From Candidatus Hodarchaeota archaeon (lineage in GTDB: Archaea > Asgardarchaeota > Heimdallarchaeia > Hodarchaeales > Hodarchaeaceae): DNA of 32,451 nt. The translations under genes were made by a program, and so were the position numbers. Below the pieces are notes generated by a model. The model searched no databases and was not told the DNA's origin. It saw only the letters and a list, made by a program, of their open reading frames with translations. Positions 5,637 through 30,019 of this stretch are shown here, in pieces. The DNA lies in the NCBI GenBank assembly GCA_029856365.1, contig JAHQWW010000029.1, positions 1 to 32,451 on the forward strand, in the 5' to 3' direction. Position 1 is the stretch's first letter. Each line of letters begins with the position of its first letter.

Positions 5637-6863
5637 ATGTCCAGTAATGCCAAGAAGGCCATTCCAGATCGAATAAGGAGTTTAATAATGGACAGTCACC
5701 TCGAAAAACCCATTTATGAATACAAACGTGAAGAGATTTCAGGATTTACATCAAAAGCAATAATTGGTATTGGAAAATATTATGCTGCAAAACTTAAGCG
5801 GAAAGCAAAAATCGAAACAATAGCTGATCTGGCAAATCTAGATCTTAAAATAGCTGACGAAATCGGAATAAGTCGAAAGTTGTTAGAAAAATGGACACTT
5901 TCTGCTTCTATTATCCATAGGTTTGCTTCTAGTACTGAAGTACCTTTATCGTCACATCGTGTCTGCATAGCTGGATTGGGTGCTGCAGGTAAAAGCTCTT
6001 TAATAAAAACCTTGCAAACACAAAAAACAACACCAGTCACCTTTCCCACTTTAGGAGCTTCAATAGAGCATCTTGATTTTCTTGGATTAAAAATCGCGTT
6101 GTGGGATCTTGGAGGGCAGCCAAGTTTTCACAAACTCTATCTAGATGATCCAAAGCAATTCCTATCAAGAACTATGCTACTAATCTTCGTATTAGATACA
6201 CAGAGAGAAGAACGTTCAGGTGAGGCAGCCCAATACCTAAATAATTTACTAATAAAATTCAAATATTTAAAAGAAAAACCTAAAATATACTTAGTTCTAC
6301 ATAAATACGACCCAATTCTTGATAAAACCGACCTTGATAATTCAATCGATGTTATTCTCAATAATATACGGCCTGTATTAACTAAATATAGGTACAACTT
6401 TAGGATGTTAAAAACAAGCATTTTTGACGTTGAAGAATTGGTTAAATTATTTTCACGAGTTTTCGCAGACGTTTCCCCTTTAAGTGAAATTCTTTCTGAT
6501 TCTCTTGCGTTTTATTCTGAGACTCATGGTTTTACAGCAAGTTTTCTCTTAACCGAGAATTGTTTTATAGCTGCAGAGTGGACCACTCAATTAACAACAG
6601 AACAGAGAGACAAATTATTTCTAGAAATAATGGAAGGAATCCGCCAAGAAGTTTATGAAAGCGAAAAAAAGCATGACAAACTCGTAATTATGAGCCAGAT
6701 GGGAGGGATATTTATTACCATTGATCGAATGGAATTTGATTCAATCAAGTTGTTCCTTTGTTCAATTAGCACCGAATTCAAATCAAATACTGAACCAGAG
6801 ACGGAAAAATTTATTGGCGAAATCCGGCCTTGGATTATTAATTTCTTTTCAATCATTACTTAA
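5637..6863 (+). CDS. Rag/Arf-like small GTPase with N-terminal HhH-like domain and C-terminal roadblock/longin-like domain
   Basis: G1 GLGAAGKS, G2 PTLG, G3 WDLGGQ, G4 HKYD, G5 TSIFD. N-terminal IIGIGKYYAAKL...IETIADLA (HhH-like). C-terminal alpha/beta domain beginning ILSDSL...ASFLLTENCFIAAEW. Confidence 0.85.
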   Translation: MSSNAKKAIPDRIRSLIMDSHLEKPIYEYKREEISGFTSKAIIGIGKYYAAKLKRKAKIETIADLANLDLKIADEIGISRKLLEKWTLSASIIHRFASSTEVPLSSHRVCIAGLGAAGKSSLIKTLQTQKTTPVTFPTLGASIEHLDFLGLKIALWDLGGQPSFHKLYLDDPKQFLSRTMLLIFVLDTQREERSGEAAQYLNNLLIKFKYLKEKPKIYLVLHKYDPILDKTDLDNSIDVILNNIRPVLTKYRYNFRMLKTSIFDVEELVKLFSRVFADVSPLSEILSDSLAFYSETHGFTASFLLTENCFIAAEWTTQLTTEQRDKLFLEIMEGIRQEVYESEKKHDKLVIMSQMGGIFITIDRMEFDSIKLFLCSISTEFKSNTEPETEKFIGEIRPWIINFFSIIT

Positions 6864-22000: not shown

Positions 22001-22117
22001 TAAATATATTATAATTTCAGTCAGTTTAAATTAAGAATTATTTATTTTTTGAAGAAATACACCCAAAAAAGAAAAAAATAGCTAATGATTAAATTGGTTA
22101 AAATAGGTAGTTTACCA

Positions 22118-24385
22118 ATGAATTGGAATATCCGCCTAGCTTATATACAAACGATCTGTTCTTCCATCGGAATGGGTATTATTCAAATCGCTTTCTCGGT
22201 ATTTGTCATCCAAGGGCTAGGACAGACAAATTTTATTCTAGGGACTCTTTTCACTATGCAAGGGCTAGCCTCAACGATATTTGTATTTCCATCGGGGTTT
22301 TTAGCGGATAAATACAGACGAGATACCTTAATCCGAACCGCGGTACTATTTGGAGTCCTCTCTCAACTATCACTAATATTTTCTACATTTTTGGGTGAGA
22401 CTCCTCAGTTAGCTCTGAATATCTTATTTTTAGCTCAAGGTTTAGGGGGTTTAGCTTGGGGTTTATCAGGTCCAGCTGGTCAGGCACTCATCGCTGATAG
22501 TATCGAACCCGGAAATCGTAGTAGAGTCTTTGCAAACATGCATTATGCTAGTTTTTCAGCCTCTGCGGCAGGGCCGTTTGTAGCTGCAGGTATAACTGTC
22601 TTTCTCGGTGACACATGGGCAATCGAAGTTCTTAAATCAGTCATCTTTATTGGTGCACTAAGCTCCTTAGTTGCTTGGTGTGCGTTCATTTTAGTATCAG
22701 ATAATAAAGCTCTTGTTGTAAAAAATGAAAGAAAAGAGGAGAAAGAAAGAGAAATTCCCTCTAGCAAGGAAATTCACAAAGAATCAACACTTTTTAGACG
22801 GGAATTTTCATATGATGTATTTGTACCATCAATCATAGTTATTTCAGGTATCATCATTGGATTTGGTGCAGGCGCAACCGTGGCATTTTTTCCTGTCCTC
22901 TTTGCTGATCCTGTAATTGGTTACGACCTTAAACCTTTCTTTACTTTCGTCATCTTTGGTGCTACAAATGTAGTTTCTGGATTTATGGGGCTTGTTGCTC
23001 AAAGGTTAATTAAGAACTTTGGCAGGATTGGTTCAATGTTTCTTGTCCAAGGGCTTGCAATCGTCTGCTTATTGGGATTAACGGCCAATCTTGCTTTCTA
23101 TATGAATAAAACAGTCTCTTTCAATTTTTCTGTAGTCCTACTTGTGATATTCTTTATCTCTCGTAATGCATTGATGAATGCATCATCTCCTATTAGTAGA
23201 TCAATAGTGATGGATTGTGTTCCTTCATTATCACGAGCAAAATGGAATTCTCTCGAAACATTGGCCTGGGGGATGTTTTGGTCTGTTTCTGCTTCCATTG
23301 GAGGGTCTATTGTTGACTCTTATGGTTTTCTCTATGTTTTCATCTTTACTGCCACTCTTTATACTATTGCGACTCTTATGCTTTTGTTAATAAAAAATCG
23401 TGTTCCCAAGGAATCGATTCTCACCCATACTTACCAATTAGGAAAGTTAAAGACAAGGAATCGTGTTGTTCTTCCCTCTATAAGTGTTGCGGATGACTTA
23501 AGGTTTGGAGATGTTTCGGGACAACTTTCTCCTTCAGCAATCTCTTATTATGCAAAAATAGCTGAGGGAGGAGCTGGTTTGGTTTATTTGGAACCAGCAT
23601 ATATATCGAATTCTGGTAAAAGCCACAATTATCAAGTAGGAATTCATGAGGATTATGTTATACCGCGCATGGTTGATGCAGTAAACCAAATCCATGGGAA
23701 TGGCGCTTTAGCAGGAATAAGATTACGACACGCAGGAGCAGCTACAACTCGTTTTCTTAGCGGAGATCAACCCTTAGCTCCTTCTGCTATCACAATTGCC
23801 GACAAAAACCTATCTCGTCCTATGACTGATGATGAACTCTCACATCTTATTACCTGCTATATTCAAGCTGCTAAACGCGCTGTATCCGCAGGTTTTGATA
23901 TAGTGGAAGTTTCTGCTTGTATCTTTCCTAATAAATTTTCCAATTTACTTGGTCAATTTCTTTCCCCTAATTTCAATCTAAGAATAGATAAATATGGAGG
24001 ATCTTTGAGGAATAGACTCCTCTTTCCTCTAGATGTCGTTAGAGCTATTAAAACTAATATTCCTCCAGAGATCATGTTATCTTTTCATCTAACACTCCCC
24101 TTTCAAGGATTGTCTATTGAAGATTTATTAGAACTCGCAAAATCTTTAGAAATAGTTGGAATTGACTTACTAAGCCTAGGTTATTCAGGTACATGGTCAC
24201 AGAGGGATGGATTTGACGAGTTTTGCGAACAGATAAGAAAAGAGGTCAAATCTCTACCACTAGTTCTGCATGGGGACTTTAATGTAGAAAGTGCAGAAAC
24301 AGCTTTGAAGAGAGGTCAAGCTGATTTTATTGGATTTGAGAAATTAATCCAAGAAGATCGATCTTTTCCGCAAGCACTGCGATAA
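22118..24385 (+). CDS. MFS transporter fused to a degenerate NADH:flavin oxidoreductase (Old Yellow Enzyme) domain
   Basis: 12-TM MFS (SGFLADKYRRD) runs in frame, from about 23411, into LGKLKTRNRVV...AEGGAGLV...HAG...AAKRAVSAGFDIVEV...QFLSPNFNLRIDKYGGSLRNR. Alternative start at 22085. Confidence 0.85.
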   Translation: MNWNIRLAYIQTICSSIGMGIIQIAFSVFVIQGLGQTNFILGTLFTMQGLASTIFVFPSGFLADKYRRDTLIRTAVLFGVLSQLSLIFSTFLGETPQLALNILFLAQGLGGLAWGLSGPAGQALIADSIEPGNRSRVFANMHYASFSASAAGPFVAAGITVFLGDTWAIEVLKSVIFIGALSSLVAWCAFILVSDNKALVVKNERKEEKEREIPSSKEIHKESTLFRREFSYDVFVPSIIVISGIIIGFGAGATVAFFPVLFADPVIGYDLKPFFTFVIFGATNVVSGFMGLVAQRLIKNFGRIGSMFLVQGLAIVCLLGLTANLAFYMNKTVSFNFSVVLLVIFFISRNALMNASSPISRSIVMDCVPSLSRAKWNSLETLAWGMFWSVSASIGGSIVDSYGFLYVFIFTATLYTIATLMLLLIKNRVPKESILTHTYQLGKLKTRNRVVLPSISVADDLRFGDVSGQLSPSAISYYAKIAEGGAGLVYLEPAYISNSGKSHNYQVGIHEDYVIPRMVDAVNQIHGNGALAGIRLRHAGAATTRFLSGDQPLAPSAITIADKNLSRPMTDDELSHLITCYIQAAKRAVSAGFDIVEVSACIFPNKFSNLLGQFLSPNFNLRIDKYGGSLRNRLLFPLDVVRAIKTNIPPEIMLSFHLTLPFQGLSIEDLLELAKSLEIVGIDLLSLGYSGTWSQRDGFDEFCEQIRKEVKSLPLVLHGDFNVESAETALKRGQADFIGFEKLIQEDRSFPQALR

Positions 24386-25174: not shown

Positions 25175-26158
25175 TCAAAGCACTTTCCACTCTTTTAATT
25201 GTCGAAGTGAAACGTTAGCTCCACATAGAATAATACAGATTTTTTTAATACCTGACAAATCAAACTTATCATGCAGCAGCGCTGCAATAGAACAAGAAGT
25301 GGCAGGTTCTATCAGTATTTTTTCGTGTTCTAGCATTAACAGTAATGCTTCTAGGGCTTCTTCGTCTGTAACTGTTTGCATGTCATTTACTACGGCCCTA
25401 ATTCTTGCTAATGTACCTTCAGTAGTTTGTTTTGCTCCAAGAGTATCAGCGATGCTTGTTATAGCAGGAAGCTTTACTGGATATCCTTTTCGAAAACTTT
25501 GTGTAACGGCATCACAACCTACAGTTTCTACCCCCCAAATTCTTATTTCAGGCTTCATCTGTCTTGCCACGACTCCCAGTCCACTTATTAAACCACCTCC
25601 TCCGACTGACGCAATTATAGCATCTAGATAAGGATTTTGCTCAAGGAGTTCGAGTGCAATAGTGCCTTGTCCCCTAACTACTGCAATGTCATCGAATGGA
25701 TGAATATAAGTTAATCTTTCATCTTGTGCGTATTCCTGAGCTTTCTGATTAGCCTCATCCCAAGCATCCCCGTGTAGAATCGTTTTTCCTCTCCACTGCT
25801 CAATTTTCTTAACTTTCTCTTTTGCAGTCTTTAATGGAAGAAAAACTACTACTGGAGTATTAAGTTCTTTTCCTGCATAACAAACCCCCAGACCATGGTT
25901 TCCGCCAGACGCAGTCACTAAACCATAAGATAACTCCTTTTTATCCAATGAAAGAGCTTTTGAGCATGCTCCTCGGACTTTAAAGGATCGTGTTGGCTGT
26001 AAAAATTCTAACTTTAGATAAACTTCTTTTCCAATCAGTTTTTCAAGGTGATAAGATCGAATGACTGGTGTTTTAATTACATACGGTCGAATTTGGGAAA
26101 GAGTTTCTTTAACTTCTAATAAGGTCAAATCTTTGAAAATATTGGATAAATCCAACAC
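25175..26158 (-). CDS. PLP-dependent threonine/serine dehydratase (no regulatory domain)
   Basis: SFKVRGA (PLP lysine), ASGGNHG, HPFDD, GQGT, VGGGGL, EPA and CGAN. Confidence 0.92.
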   Translation of the reverse strand: MLDLSNIFKDLTLLEVKETLSQIRPYVIKTPVIRSYHLEKLIGKEVYLKLEFLQPTRSFKVRGACSKALSLDKKELSYGLVTASGGNHGLGVCYAGKELNTPVVVFLPLKTAKEKVKKIEQWRGKTILHGDAWDEANQKAQEYAQDERLTYIHPFDDIAVVRGQGTIALELLEQNPYLDAIIASVGGGGLISGLGVVARQMKPEIRIWGVETVGCDAVTQSFRKGYPVKLPAITSIADTLGAKQTTEGTLARIRAVVNDMQTVTDEEALEALLLMLEHEKILIEPATSCSIAALLHDKFDLSGIKKICIILCGANVSLRQLKEWKVL

Positions 26159-26177: not shown

Positions 26178-26969
26178 TTATTTTAGGTGTTTAGACGCTA
26201 ACAGAGCAGCTCCTAATGCTCCGATCATTTGGGGGTTTGGTGGGACTTCTATCGGCGCGTTCATTTGATGTTCGAGCATCTTTTTCACACCAGGGTTTAA
26301 TGCAACGCCTCCTGTTAGAGCAATTAGGGGGATTATGCCAACACGGGCGGTCAGAGCAGCAATTTTATTTGCGATAGTCTTATGAATACCAGCAATAATA
26401 TCTAATCTATTTGCTCCTTGGTTTAGACGTGATATAACTTCTGACTCTGCAAATACGGTACATGTACTCGAAATAGAAGCTGGATTTGTCGAAATAAGCG
26501 CTTGATTACCAAATTCTGATAACTCTACTTCTAAGGCATTGGCCATCACTTCTAAGAAACGCCCTGTTCCAGCACTACACTTATCGTTCATCTCGAAGTC
26601 TTGAATTTGTCCGTCCTCATTTATTTGAATAACCTTCGAATCCTGCCCACCAATATCAATAATGGTTCGAATATTAGGATTGACAAAAAAGGCCCCTGTG
26701 GCATGACATGTGATCTCAGTTATATTTTCATTAGCAGCTTTGACTAATTTTCTTCCATAACCAGTGGAGATAGTATATGCAAAGTTTTCCGTACCAATGG
26801 CGTCTTTGGCATCATTTACTAGGCTTTCTGCAATTCCTGTAGGATTATAACCTACACGTCTTATAAATGAATATTTTTGTTGGATGGAGGTGTTAATTTT
26901 ATTTGAAACCGCAAGTACTACAATCTTTGCTGTCAATGAGCCAATATCTATGCCTGCAACCAGATCCAT
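26178..26969 (-). CDS. 2-hydroxyacyl-CoA dehydratase activase (HgdC/BcrAD-type ASKHA ATPase)
   Basis: GIDIGS, TGYGR, EITCH, DIGGQDSK, NDKCSAGTGRF and STCTVFAESE. ATG 26969 follows GAGG. Confidence 0.92.
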   Translation of the reverse strand: MDLVAGIDIGSLTAKIVVLAVSNKINTSIQQKYSFIRRVGYNPTGIAESLVNDAKDAIGTENFAYTISTGYGRKLVKAANENITEITCHATGAFFVNPNIRTIIDIGGQDSKVIQINEDGQIQDFEMNDKCSAGTGRFLEVMANALEVELSEFGNQALISTNPASISSTCTVFAESEVISRLNQGANRLDIIAGIHKTIANKIAALTARVGIIPLIALTGGVALNPGVKKMLEHQMNAPIEVPPNPQMIGALGAALLASKHLK

Positions 26970-26998: not shown

Positions 26999-28978
26999 TC
27001 AGCAATATTGACATTTATTAGTAGTAACCATGTGTTTTTTACAATACCATCTGTTACATGAGTTACATTGCCCAAAAAGGGAATAAAAATCCTCTTTATC
27101 AATACCTCGTCCAGCTCTGGCTTTTCTGAGTTTATTAACTGCATTATCTCTTTGGGTATTAGTAATTAAAAGTTCATCTAGGTTTTCAATGAAAAGATAA
27201 TCTTCCAGTACAAAATCTTTGTTTATTTCTTCTTCCTCTATTAAAGCAATGAGGTTTTTAAGGCGATTTTCAAGAATTGTTTTTAATTTGATGACAATTG
27301 GGGGAGATTTTTCAGGAAACCCATCATAAATGCCAAGAAGTGTCGCGAAAACACTTAATTTGACCCATGTAGTCGAATTATCTCGAATCCTAACTGTTGT
27401 TCTACAGTTATAAGCAGAACATTTGAAAATAACAATGACTTTTTTCTTTCTCTTAGACCTATTAAACTTAACAGGAGGAGGAAGTAATCGGATAAATAAG
27501 CGATAAGAATTGAGAAGATCTATATAAAACCTACTTACTTTCCCAGTGATTGCTGATCGCTGTTCAAAGATTTTTTCGTCTAAATTACCGCGCCTTCGTG
27601 CCAACTCAGTTTGAAGAACGTCATCTTGATCTGTTTCTGATAATTGCTGTTTCAAAAGATTCAAAGTTTTTGTAGAGCTTTCCAATTGTGCTCCTATACT
27701 TCTCAGGTCATTAACAAATAAGTATAGAGGATCTGTATCCGCCAAAGTTAACATTATCTGGAATTCTCCCAGAGCTTCAGAGATAACCTCTTGAACAGCT
27801 ACTTCTGATGGTTGAACTGAGGGAAGTTGCGTAAGAAGGGGATTTATGGGAATAAAAAGATCTCCTATTTGAGTTTTTACGATTTTTATTTGTTCTATGT
27901 CATCCTTGTCAATATCAACGCTTGAATCAAGAACTAATATTTCCCGTCCTGATTTACGAGCCTTACCAACTTTACCACTAATAGTTCCTTCTCCAATAAG
28001 ATATTCTAATGCCATTGATAAGACTTCAGCAGGTAATCTCATCCTCCTACGTAAATATCCAATTGAGATCTCATTTGCTCTATATTTTTTAGCTACTGTT
28101 TTTATCTCATTTTCAAGAGATTTGAGCATTTCAGTGTCAAAAATATTTAATGTTTGAATTTCTTCATCAGTTGTTTCACCTTCAAATGCCTGGCGGATTT
28201 CTTCCAACATTTGTTCCCGATCTTCATCAATAATTTCTGGTACAATTGCACTATATATCACAGGATCCACAATTTTTTGATAAAGAGACTTTAATTCTGG
28301 ATCAAGAGTCACTGCATCTAGATCTGTCCCTTGTTGCGTTACAACTAGAGCTAAATCCTGAGATGGGTTAAAAGCAACGTTTAAAAGTAGATTTCCAGTT
28401 CCTTGAAGGATACAAGCGTCTATTCCACCTGCAGATACCTCATAATCTATCCGTTCAACCAGAGAGAGAAGAGAAGTAATTGAGATTGCAAAGAGAAAAT
28501 CATCCATTTCTTCTACAGAATTCAACCAGACTGGATAACCTTCTGAGGAAACCAATCCAACTGTTTCGTATTTTTTCTGGTAACCAATCTGAAAGATAAA
28601 TCTTAGTATAATTTTAAGGACATCCAGAGAATCAACAGCAGCTTCGGACAAGATTACAAGAAGTACATCAAAGCCTAGGGAGTAAATCGTGACAACTTTA
28701 CTGTGACTCTTGATGGTAAGAGAATTCCAAGTTTCTAATTGAAGTTCGTTAGTCAAAATATTGGTAAGACTACGCCATGCTTGCCCAAGTAAAGCAGCGC
28801 TTTCCACTTCTACTTGGCTTTTTGAAGTTGAAAATATTTGGAGATCTGTATCTAGCTGAATTAAGATCATCAATTCAAATTGGGAGGTGTCAAGTTCAGA
28901 TTCAGCAAGAGTGAGAGCTTCTTTTGTTAGATTAAACCATTGAAGAGGATCCATTAGGAAATCAAATCCCTTAATCAT
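26999..28978 (-). CDS. Multidomain protein: two roadblock-like domains, winged helix, coiled coil and C-terminal multi-Cys Zn finger
   Basis: Roadblock-like pattern twice (LMILIQLDTDLQIFS...; VGLVSSEGYPVW...LLSLVERI...CILQG...LALVV); wHTH-like ISIGYLRRRMRLPAEVLSMALEYLIGEGTISGKV; CSAYNC ... CNSCNRWYCKKH...CQYC. Confidence 0.7.
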   Translation of the reverse strand: MIKGFDFLMDPLQWFNLTKEALTLAESELDTSQFELMILIQLDTDLQIFSTSKSQVEVESAALLGQAWRSLTNILTNELQLETWNSLTIKSHSKVVTIYSLGFDVLLVILSEAAVDSLDVLKIILRFIFQIGYQKKYETVGLVSSEGYPVWLNSVEEMDDFLFAISITSLLSLVERIDYEVSAGGIDACILQGTGNLLLNVAFNPSQDLALVVTQQGTDLDAVTLDPELKSLYQKIVDPVIYSAIVPEIIDEDREQMLEEIRQAFEGETTDEEIQTLNIFDTEMLKSLENEIKTVAKKYRANEISIGYLRRRMRLPAEVLSMALEYLIGEGTISGKVGKARKSGREILVLDSSVDIDKDDIEQIKIVKTQIGDLFIPINPLLTQLPSVQPSEVAVQEVISEALGEFQIMLTLADTDPLYLFVNDLRSIGAQLESSTKTLNLLKQQLSETDQDDVLQTELARRRGNLDEKIFEQRSAITGKVSRFYIDLLNSYRLFIRLLPPPVKFNRSKRKKKVIVIFKCSAYNCRTTVRIRDNSTTWVKLSVFATLLGIYDGFPEKSPPIVIKLKTILENRLKNLIALIEEEEINKDFVLEDYLFIENLDELLITNTQRDNAVNKLRKARAGRGIDKEDFYSLFGQCNSCNRWYCKKHMVTTNKCQYC

Positions 28979-29364
28979 AATTTTGCTTTAAGCTCGGTAT
29001 TCAACTTTTCAGCAATGAGGTTAGGACTCCCAGAGGGTTCAGTCACCACTAGGGATATTAAATGGGGTGAAACAGCAATAGCGATATCTTTAGTTTTACC
29101 TTGGACATGTATTAGACGAACTTTCTCTTGTGAGAGAGTTGAAAGTGTCCTTTCTCCTAATGTCGTACTCGCACCTGCAAGAGCTGCATATCTATTCAGG
29201 ATGCCTGAATCTGTGATTTCAGAAAGCCCATTTTCTGATTCACGGTTAAGTGTCAGAATTGGAAGCCCTTCAGGAGTAATCAAGGAGATCATTTGAATCT
29301 GTGAGTTCTTTTGGAACACCTCTTCTAGAATAGTGCGCAGTTCATTCTTTATTTGTTCGTCCAT
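28975..29364 (-). CDS. Roadblock/LC7 (MglB-like) domain protein
   Basis: ISLITPEGLPI, YAALAGASTTLGERTL, IHVQGK and LVVTE. ATG 29364 follows GAGGTG. The stop overlaps the next start (ATGA). Confidence 0.85.
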   Translation of the reverse strand: MDEQIKNELRTILEEVFQKNSQIQMISLITPEGLPILTLNRESENGLSEITDSGILNRYAALAGASTTLGERTLSTLSQEKVRLIHVQGKTKDIAIAVSPHLISLVVTEPSGSPNLIAEKLNTELKAKL

Positions 29365-29423
29365 CTCAGCACACCTCATTAGCCAAGTTATGGGCGAGTT
29401 CAGGTACTAATAAAGGCTTCATA

Positions 29424-29431
29424 CTTATATA
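29424..29431 (-). promoter_or_regulatory. Putative TATA box of the roadblock operon
   Basis: TATATAAG on the minus strand about 60 nt upstream of ATG 29364. Confidence 0.3.
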
Positions 29432-29452
29432 GATCTAGGATATGCTCATAAG

Positions 29453-29708
29453 GTTATTAAAAGTGATAACAATATATTCAATTTTATTTACAAGAGGTCA
29501 TCAACTAGCTCGTCACCATGGCTAGTCTCCATCGTGTGGGATGTAACCCAACAGCCTCTATCCTGTCAGCTTCAACCGCGTTCAGGAATGCTTTTATCAG
29601 AATGTTATACGCCCCATTCATATCCGCATTAATTATTGTGCCTTTTTGAGATTTGAATAGCCCTCTGGTCATTCTTCGGCCTAGATATTTGTTATGGTGT
29701 TCGATAGC
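29453..29708 (-). mobile_element. Truncated IS200/IS605-superfamily element: tnpB 3' end plus structured right end (omegaRNA region)
   Basis: A TnpB C-terminal coding remnant is followed by inverted repeats, ending in a GTTAT-N8-ATAAC hairpin at 29453-29470. No tnpA or left end is visible. Confidence 0.75.
29505..29708 (-). pseudogene. tnpB: TnpB C-terminal fragment (67 aa)
   Basis: AIEHHNKYLGRRMTRGLFKSQKGTIINADMNGAYNILIKAFLNAVEADRIEAVGLHPTRWRLAMVTS*, containing RGLF, the RuvC-III motif NADxNGAxNI and GLHP. Absent from the ORF track. Confidence 0.85.
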
Positions 29709-30019
29709 TGAGTCAGCGCTTGGATAAGGGGGGAATCATCTATGCCAATATCCAATAAGACCCGACGAGGGCGTGGATTTTGCTTTTTCGCTTTATAACT
29801 GGAAGAGTCAAATAATTTGGGACTGATCTCACTAACTTTGAATCCACCCTGCACTCCCGTTAGTTGTAAAGCAGCATCCACGATAGATGAATGCACCCAA
29901 AAAACGAAAGTGTGAGAAGTGCTTAAGGTTGGTTTGGGAGGGAGTAAATAAGCGCGCTTCCACTGGTATAACTGATAGAGGGATGCCAATTGAATTTCAG
30001 ATCTGTATTTTCTTTCAAG

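Follow-up and report, generated by a model that had tools for sequence, protein, structure and literature searches.

The stretch of DNA analysed here, referred to as the window, comprises 32,451 nucleotides (nt) of contig JAHQWW010000029.1 from a Candidatus Hodarchaeota archaeon (assembly GCA_029856365.1). It carries on its reverse strand two coupled genes, one for a small roadblock/LC7 protein and one for a large protein, here called the scaffold protein, which joins two roadblock domains to a winged helix, a helical bundle and a putative split zinc finger (Table 1). The start of the scaffold gene overlaps the stop of the small gene as ATGA, and the open reading frames (ORFs) together with the homologue starts agree with an earlier, model-made annotation of the letters (the sequence-only reading), which had described a single roadblock gene overlapping a 659-residue gene in this way.

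A coupled gene pair with three roadblock domains

We modelled the N-terminal half of the scaffold protein with AlphaFold2 on a 35-sequence alignment (mean predicted local distance difference test, pLDDT, 77; predicted template modelling score, pTM, 0.61). The model and its structural matches bear out the tandem roadblock arrangement that had been proposed for residues ~15-220. Domain 2 matches the Asgard Roadblock3 protein (9jue, structural match 11.8), MglB (6hjm, 11.4), MP1/p14 (11.3) and the Rag C-terminal domain (9.9), while the best match of domain 1 is the dynein roadblock (9.4, root-mean-square deviation, rmsd, 2.3 Å). The scaffold protein thus superposes on solved roadblock proteins and has the fold of the Roadblock/LC7/MglB family (PF03259). 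By sequence, neither protein of the pair (P0001 and P0002) matches PF03259 at E<=0.1 or reaches its gathering score. Sub-threshold matches to Robl_LC7 were found in 3 of 24 relatives of the scaffold protein and in 14 of 24 homologues of the small protein (best E 1e-4), several of which carry the COG label 'Roadblock/LC7/MglB' in their source databases. Both proteins of the pair are divergent roadblock members by fold. The alpha2 helix of domain 2 (residues 160-181) is the most conserved stretch of the scaffold protein, and the alpha2 helix of the small protein is nearly invariant in the alignment of its homologues.

Searches with the two proteins against Pfam and NCBIfam gave no match at or above the cut-offs. 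Against the sequences of the PDB, the scaffold-family profile matched nothing, and the profile of the small-protein family met the dynein roadblock at E 0.65 and nothing else. These Pfam, NCBIfam and PDB profile searches uphold the view that the architecture corresponds to no described family. The multi-domain Foldseek matches of the scaffold protein (Fuzzy-Inturned, Mon1-Ccz1 and CodY) have an rmsd of 15-27 Å and reflect repeated folds, not a common arrangement. An hhalign comparison placed the small-protein family on domain 2 of the scaffold N-terminal half with a probability of 6.9%, and was not used as evidence.

Table 1 Coordinates of the gene pair, its domains, its neighbours and related loci
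Feature	Position	Strand	Remarks
Small roadblock/LC7 gene (P0002), 129 amino acids (aa)	28975..29364	-	ORF reaches 29379; homologues begin at ATG 29364
Scaffold protein gene (P0001), 659 aa	26999..28978	-	ATGA overlap with small roadblock gene; 59 full-length homologues
Roadblock domain 1, aa 11-112	28643..28948	-	alpha-beta-beta-alpha-beta-beta-beta in AlphaFold2 model; lacks own C-terminal helix
Roadblock domain 2, aa 118-234	28277..28627	-	topology of domain 1 plus C-terminal helix in AlphaFold2 model
Acidic linker, aa 257-281	28136..28210	-	motif GExTEEEIQTLNxFD; conserved; modelled as disordered (residues 257-279), pLDDT <50
Winged helix, aa 282-350	27929..28135	-	canonical winged helix in AlphaFold2 model; isoelectric point (pI) 9.8
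Helical hairpin, helices 394-412, 416-448, 453-498	27485..27799	-	modelled; closes in invariant LPxP turn
N-terminal putative zinc knuckle, C520-x4-C525	27377..27484	-	inside three beta strands; pLDDT 93-97
Four-helix insert, aa 535-632	27083..27376	-	modelled; between the two finger halves
Six C-terminal putative zinc ligands, C638-x2-C641-x4-C646-x2-H649-x6-C656-x2-C659	27002..27082	-	invariant
HgdC-type acyl-CoA dehydratase activase	26178..26969	-	TIGR00241, 252 bits; 29 nt after scaffold gene
Threonine/serine dehydratase-like pyridoxal phosphate enzyme	25175..26158	-	19 nt after activase; also in L001, L002
Rab-like GTPases of clade C	L005:9855-10406, L021:7228-7767, L023:2047-2586	-	motifs GDGAVGKT, WDLAGQE, GNKIDL, ETSAK
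Surface protein P0154, 2463 residues (genome G126)	L016:856-8247	+	ends in the split-zinc module
Tetratricopeptide repeat (TPR) protein P0155, 621 residues (Candidatus Borrarchaeum weybense)	L017:6174-8039	-	found by module-only profile

We placed the start of the small gene at the second ATG of its ORF (29364), because all aligned homologues begin there; a Shine-Dalgarno-like motif, GAGGTG, lies 8 nt 5' of this ATG. A TATA-like 'ATATAAGT' is found ~55 nt before it. The ~650-nt gap at 29365-30019, which separates the roadblock gene from a DUF763 gene, measures 121 nt in a sister genome (L001) and contains only a TTG-started ORF of 102 codons with neither a family match nor an Rfam hit; an Rfam scan of the whole window found no RNA family. 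That TTG ORF (29681-29989) and the antisense ORFs at 27897-28157 and 29015-29296 lack family support and were rejected as spurious.

Winged helix, helical bundle and split finger

The two roadblock domains are followed by an acidic linker, in which E273, L277 and F280 do not vary, distant clades included, and residues 237-281 carry a net charge of -12. The winged helix that comes next is the sole sizeable basic part of a protein with an overall pI of 4.85, with conserved R310 and R312 and a basic wing. Its structural matches are led by TREX-2 (9upb_B, 9.7) and include UFL1/DDRGK1 (9.3), a proteasome chain (9.1) and kleisin and MarR-type winged helices (8-9), so that PCI winged helices head the list given by VIA yet tie with non-PCI ones. 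The region had been called 'PCI/ESCRT-II-like' at residues ~285-350, with an 'LI.EG.I.G.V' pattern that is indeed literally present at L327-V337. The winged-helix fold stands, but the more specific kinship does not. The protein has no Pfam match to the PCI domain (PF01399), and in place of the PCI helical-repeat arm the AlphaFold2 model shows only three short helices before the winged helix, partly of low confidence. It holds one winged helix, not the tandem pair of ESCRT-II (Vps22/25/36), and no ESCRT-II chain is among the 50 best VIA rows. Kinship with DUF742 was also rejected, as a genome-wide search with PF05331 gave only two weak matches (E 0.088 and 0.7), both outside this locus.

The predicted model of the C-terminal half (pLDDT 86.7, pTM 0.74) confidently places the helical hairpin that had been expected at residues ~400-500. 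The VIA alignments of this half span model residues 40-267, taking in the hairpin and the four-helix insert together, which suggests that the two pack as one bundle; no meaningful structural match was found in any library compared. Eight Cys/His residues frame the insert in the order C-x4-C, 112 residues, C-x2-C-x4-C-x2-H-x6-C-x2-C. None of the eight (C520, C525, C638, C641, C646, H649, C656 and C659) varies among 26 homologues with 39-76% identity, in accord with the earlier count of eight ligands around an insert of ~110 residues, and the model reaches a pLDDT of 92-97 at the two knuckles. His replaces the last Cys in the most distant clade, as is expected of a metal ligand and so fits the predicted role of this residue; the family member P0134 has C-x3-H instead of C-x4-C at the first pair. 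The conservation of these positions and of the features around them lies far beyond chance. Judging from the residues themselves, the eight ligands would bind zinc, probably in a cross-braced finger.

The finger had been described as FYVE-like, a label that finds no support. The FYVE motifs WxxD, R(R/K)HHCR and RVC are all absent from the scaffold sequence, and FYVE is not among the 25 Pfam families most often matched by 24 members of the scaffold family. In that survey zf-AN1 was the first in the list and the only recurring family (12 of 24 members, best E 0.013), and the six C-terminal ligands follow AN1 spacing. In a whole-genome search with PF01428, the scaffold C-terminus ranks third, behind two true AN1 proteins, at E 0.0057 and 19.6 bits, under the cut-off of 27.9 bits, and its core C-x2-C-x4-C-x2-H falls on model positions 12-29. 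The genome's own AN1 fingers have this spacing too, and likewise an aromatic residue ahead of the third Cys. They belong to two membrane-anchored proteins of 138 residues (G000 contigs C118:4732-4833 and C88:13392-13499), whose canonical C-terminal AN1 fingers served as our reference. A full AN1 finger (PF01428) reads C-x2-C-x9-12-C-x1-2-C-x4-C-x2-H-x5-H-x-C at or above the gathering score. The scaffold finger shares with AN1 fingers (ZFAND proteins and the two genome proteins) the C3-x2-C4-x4-C5-x2-H6 spacing, the aromatic residue before C5 and the set of eight putative ligands for two metals. It differs in its sub-threshold score, in a last pair of C-x2-C or C-x2-H where AN1 has H-x-C, in a first pair of C-x4-C, and in a helical insert of 112 residues where AN1 has a loop of 9-12. 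We therefore read the finger as AN1-like, its first knuckle apparently displaced by the insert.

The helical/zinc part is not confined to the scaffold protein. The scaffold-family profile also matches the C-terminal end of P0154, a 2463-residue protein from another Asgard family, which has a signal/transmembrane segment, FG-GAP-like 'DxDxDG' repeats, many Ig-like repeats and a transmembrane helix, followed by a cytoplasmic beta-sandwich, a zinc ribbon and the split-zinc module. The module here consists of a helix, LPxP, C...W.K and TxxER, and then C-x2-C-x2-W-x-C-x2-H-x6-C-x2-C. In P0155, N-terminal TPR repeats and a beta-sandwich precede the module, whose putative ligands are C-x-C-x3-H and C-x2-C-x4-C-x2-C-x7-C-x2-H; P0154 and P0155 are 33% identical over the module (E 3e-21). 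Two more TPR proteins are encoded directly downstream of P0155. A word-indexed search for longer module-bearing proteins returned scaffold-family members only, and a profile search of genome contigs with the module only the P0154 and P0155 loci; the nine-sequence alignment of the module is too divergent for search patterns. The helical/zinc part is thus an independent, mobile domain joined to different N-terminal parts. As it ends three unrelated architectures (the tandem-roadblock scaffold, the Ca. Borrarchaeum TPR protein and an integrin-like surface protein tail), it could be a common docking module. We put forward tentatively, and with considerable doubt, that the C-terminal 160-200 residues are a mobile Asgard domain not described before, in which a helix and LPxP turn lead to a bundle clamped by the split AN1-like finger. 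Such a domain would join surface receptors and TPR adaptors to a roadblock/Rab-like GTPase switch within a single lineage-specific network for signalling.

Phyletic range and gene neighbourhoods

A search of 5.8 billion clustered proteins returned 59 relatives of the scaffold protein, nearly all of 640-660 residues and 39-76% identical over their full length; those with taxon names are from Hodarchaeales or Heimdallarchaeota. An exhaustive search with phmmer through 1.8 billion cluster representatives found only 19 relatives, some of them distant, full-length proteins at 22-35% identity, and no eukaryotic homologue. The earlier notion of 'eukaryotic trafficking-type modules' is accordingly without support at the level of sequence. 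Among 399 sampled Asgard genomes, full-length matches are confined to the genus-level group of the window, where 19 of 21 genomes have one, and to a sister family; all other Asgard families sampled lack them (for example, 0 of 31 genomes in a family of the same class). Elsewhere among these genomes, the profile matches stand-alone roadblock ORFs of 120-140 aa over roadblock domain 2 (E 1e-6 to 1e-9). The genome of the window has one copy of the scaffold gene, and the pair as a whole is conserved in one hodarchaeal lineage, almost all of whose members have it in a single copy.

Every locus whose upstream flank is available (L001-L005 and L020-L022) has a small roadblock-like gene immediately 5' of the large gene, even in relatives with 22-28% identity, and this gene weakly matches Robl_LC7 at L003-L005 and L020. 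The conserved unit is therefore the pair of roadblock and scaffold genes, and its neighbours differ by clade. In clade A, to which the window belongs, relatives down to 35% identity have the activase gene 17-65 nt downstream of the large gene, usually followed by the threonine/serine-dehydratase-like gene; no dehydratase subunits were found near the activase. The activase of the window starts at ATG 26969, not at 27014, and aligns with 1hux at E 6e-66 with both [4Fe-4S] cysteines kept. In clade B (P0136 and P0137), a NifU gene lies upstream and HIT and BacA genes lie downstream. In clade C, the most distant of the three (P0138, P0139 and P0141), all three informative loci have a convergent gene for a Rab-like GTPase of 179-183 aa, 12-37 nt after the stop of the large gene. 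Identity among the large proteins of this clade is ~30%, against 68% between the two GTPases that were compared.

We take NAGK to belong to the Pfam family BcrAD_BadFG. Mammalian NAGK binds the dynein roadblock DYNLRB1 (PMC4558486), but we set this parallel aside as a reason for the activase adjacency, the neighbour being a bona fide HgdC-type [4Fe-4S] activase.

A possible roadblock platform for a small GTPase

Roadblock dimers such as MglB and Ragulator regulate Ras-like GTPases. The roadblock protein MfpD is a GTPase-activating protein (GAP) (PMC9769811), and structures of Asgard roadblock proteins have been solved (PMC10933270). Because of the folds, the strict gene pairing, the near-invariant alpha2 helices of domain 2 and the small protein, the GTPase adjacency in clade C and these roles of MglB, MfpD and Ragulator, we hold with moderate confidence that the pair may be a roadblock platform regulating or anchoring a small GTPase, probably a Rab-like one. 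Both genes would then encode subunits of one Hodarchaeales-specific complex, to which the small protein would bring one roadblock domain and the large protein two. The two proteins presumably bind each other, the roadblock domains pairing via beta-sheet edges on the model of MglB dimers and of Ragulator with the Rag C-terminal domains. A complex prediction for domains 1-2 (aa 1-245) with the small protein scored 0.25, under the 0.32 mark, and speaks neither for nor against binding. The nearly invariant alpha2 helices may form the docking face for the Rab-like GTPase, on which the complex could act as a GAP, co-GAP, guanine nucleotide exchange factor (GEF) or anchor; a small GTPase as the client, and the direction in which it would be regulated, are what we infer. 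The basic winged helix, the acidic linker motif and the zinc-closed helical bundle might tie the platform to more partners or to a cellular site.

The sequence-only reading had likewise proposed a scaffold or regulator of small GTPases. The Rab-like gene beside the pair in clade C lends that proposal some support, of a circumstantial kind, and makes the clade C GTPases candidate clients. Several points weigh against the proposal, however. No GTPase gene adjoins the pair in the loci of the window's clade or of clade B that were examined, and the window's clade keeps metabolic genes downstream instead. The clade C gene is convergent and hence not co-transcribed with the pair, and with at least 36 small GTPase genes in such a genome, that of the window included, some proximity arises by chance; the window's genome holds no single orthologue of the clade C GTPase. 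MglB-type GAPs supply no catalytic residue, so there is none to check. In addition, the roadblock fold is generic, common in prokaryotes and not always tied to GTPases (PMC12962969).

A first alternative is a GTPase-independent scaffold in which the roadblock domains would serve only as a dimerisation platform, as in dynein LC7, and the winged helix and AN1-like finger would make contact with protein-quality-control machinery or with other complexes. Proteins associated with the proteasome and p97 do contain AN1 fingers and PCI-type winged helices, and the dynein roadblock is the best match of domain 1. The AN1-like ligand spacing of the finger fits such a role at a sub-threshold score, and the proteasome, UFL1/DDRGK1 and TREX-2 chains matched by the winged helix fit it too, but unrelated winged helices come within 1 Z unit of them. 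The C-terminal module does occur without roadblock domains, in the TPR protein and the giant surface protein tail; yet none of the loci examined has a ubiquitin-like, proteasome or p97 gene in the vicinity, and clade C places a GTPase gene there. We consider this explanation unlikely.

We regard it as quite improbable that the scaffold protein is a sensor-type nucleic-acid-binding regulator, with roadblock domains (a profilin/GAF-like fold) that would sense a ligand or partner and a basic winged helix that would bind DNA or RNA and control the activase and dehydratase genes, in the manner of CodY. CodY combines GAF and winged-helix domains, and Foldseek aligns it over ~275 columns (E 4e-5), but these alignments are not rigid (rmsd 15-17 Å). 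The concentration of basic charge in the winged helix (pI 9.8, R310, R312 and the wing) would suit nucleic-acid binding; the helix in the 'recognition' position (317-329, EVLSMALEYLIGE), however, is hydrophobic and acidic. The top match of the winged helix, TREX-2, is a PCI-type winged helix that presumably contacts nucleic acid, yet DNA-binding winged helices score no better than protein-binding ones (kleisin, UFL1 and the proteasome lid). The activase gene remains beside the pair in relatives down to 35% identity, whereas clades B and C keep the pair without these metabolic neighbours. The length of the scaffold protein (650 residues), its helical bundle and its dedicated roadblock partner would also be atypical for an archaeal transcription factor.

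A redox role, in which the eight Cys/His would bind iron or Fe-S and the complex would join the electron transfer of the activase, is very improbable: in the clade A loci examined, the large gene is followed at 17-65 nt by the gene of a genuine [4Fe-4S] ATPase, and clade B loci lie beside NifU/SUF genes, but the activase is absent from clades B and C, dehydratase subunits are not found nearby, C-x2-C/H knuckles and His are typical of structural zinc sites, and roadblock and winged-helix domains have no known redox role.

As a platform for a small GTPase, the pair can be set beside four known systems. MglB, the GAP of the Ras-like MglA (6hjm, 6h5b, 3t1r and 1j3w), and the stand-alone Asgard roadblocks (9jue, 7yh1 and 7f8m; PMC10933270) are among the closest; they are homodimers at 12-16% identity, whereas the pair spreads three roadblock domains over two chains, and its scaffold has ~430 extra residues (winged helix, helical bundle and zinc finger). 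Unlike MglB, the pair has no GTPase in its operon, and it is known here from sequence and models. Also among the closest are Ragulator (LAMTOR2/3 and LAMTOR4/5) and the roadblock C-terminal domains of Rag proteins (3cpt, 6u62, 5x6v and 6ehr), from which the pair differs in having no LAMTOR1-like wrapping subunit, no linked Rag-like GTPase in the window and no eukaryotic sequence homologue. In actinobacterial conservons, a roadblock GAP (CvnB/MfpD) and a helix-turn-helix DUF742 GEF (CvnC/MfpC) accompany a Ras-like GTPase and a sensor kinase (PMC11343762, PMC9769811 and PMC13621833). These too bring roadblock and helix-turn-helix-type modules to one small GTPase, and the scaffold has both domain kinds in one chain; its winged helix, however, is not DUF742, the pair has no histidine kinase and its GTPase would lie outside the operon, and the conservons belong to another domain of life. 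The tri-longin-domain Rab GEFs (Mon1-Ccz1 and Fuzzy-Inturned; 9rs8, 9lol and 9rs7) resemble the pair in having tandem longin/roadblock-type domains in one chain plus a second subunit, and are the top multi-domain Foldseek matches of the scaffold (E 1e-5 to 2e-4).

What is new is a lineage-restricted variant of a known regulator fold, joined to a putatively zinc-clamped helical domain that had not been described. Hodarchaeales, which belong to the archaea most closely related to eukaryotes as far as is known, possess many small GTPases, and the pair may bear on how these are regulated. The lack of a eukaryotic sequence counterpart argues for an independent Asgard elaboration of GTPase-regulator platforms and against a direct forerunner of Ragulator or of the tri-longin GEFs. 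In clade C, where a Rab-like GTPase gene adjoins the pair, specific proteins are at hand for GAP/GEF work.

The window itself encodes a GTPase of 408 residues at 5637-6863 (+), with an N-terminal helix-hairpin-helix, a Gtr1/RagA-type G domain (E 2.8e-20) and ~85 further C-terminal residues. It had been named as the possible partner of the pair, which we reject for want of synteny, as sister genomes place the Rag-like gene 855 kb away or on another contig, or it was not found there. At 22085-24385 (+), a single ORF fuses a major facilitator superfamily transporter (aa 21-338) to an Old-Yellow-Enzyme-type NADH:flavin oxidoreductase (aa 451-761), and the same fusion is present in L001.

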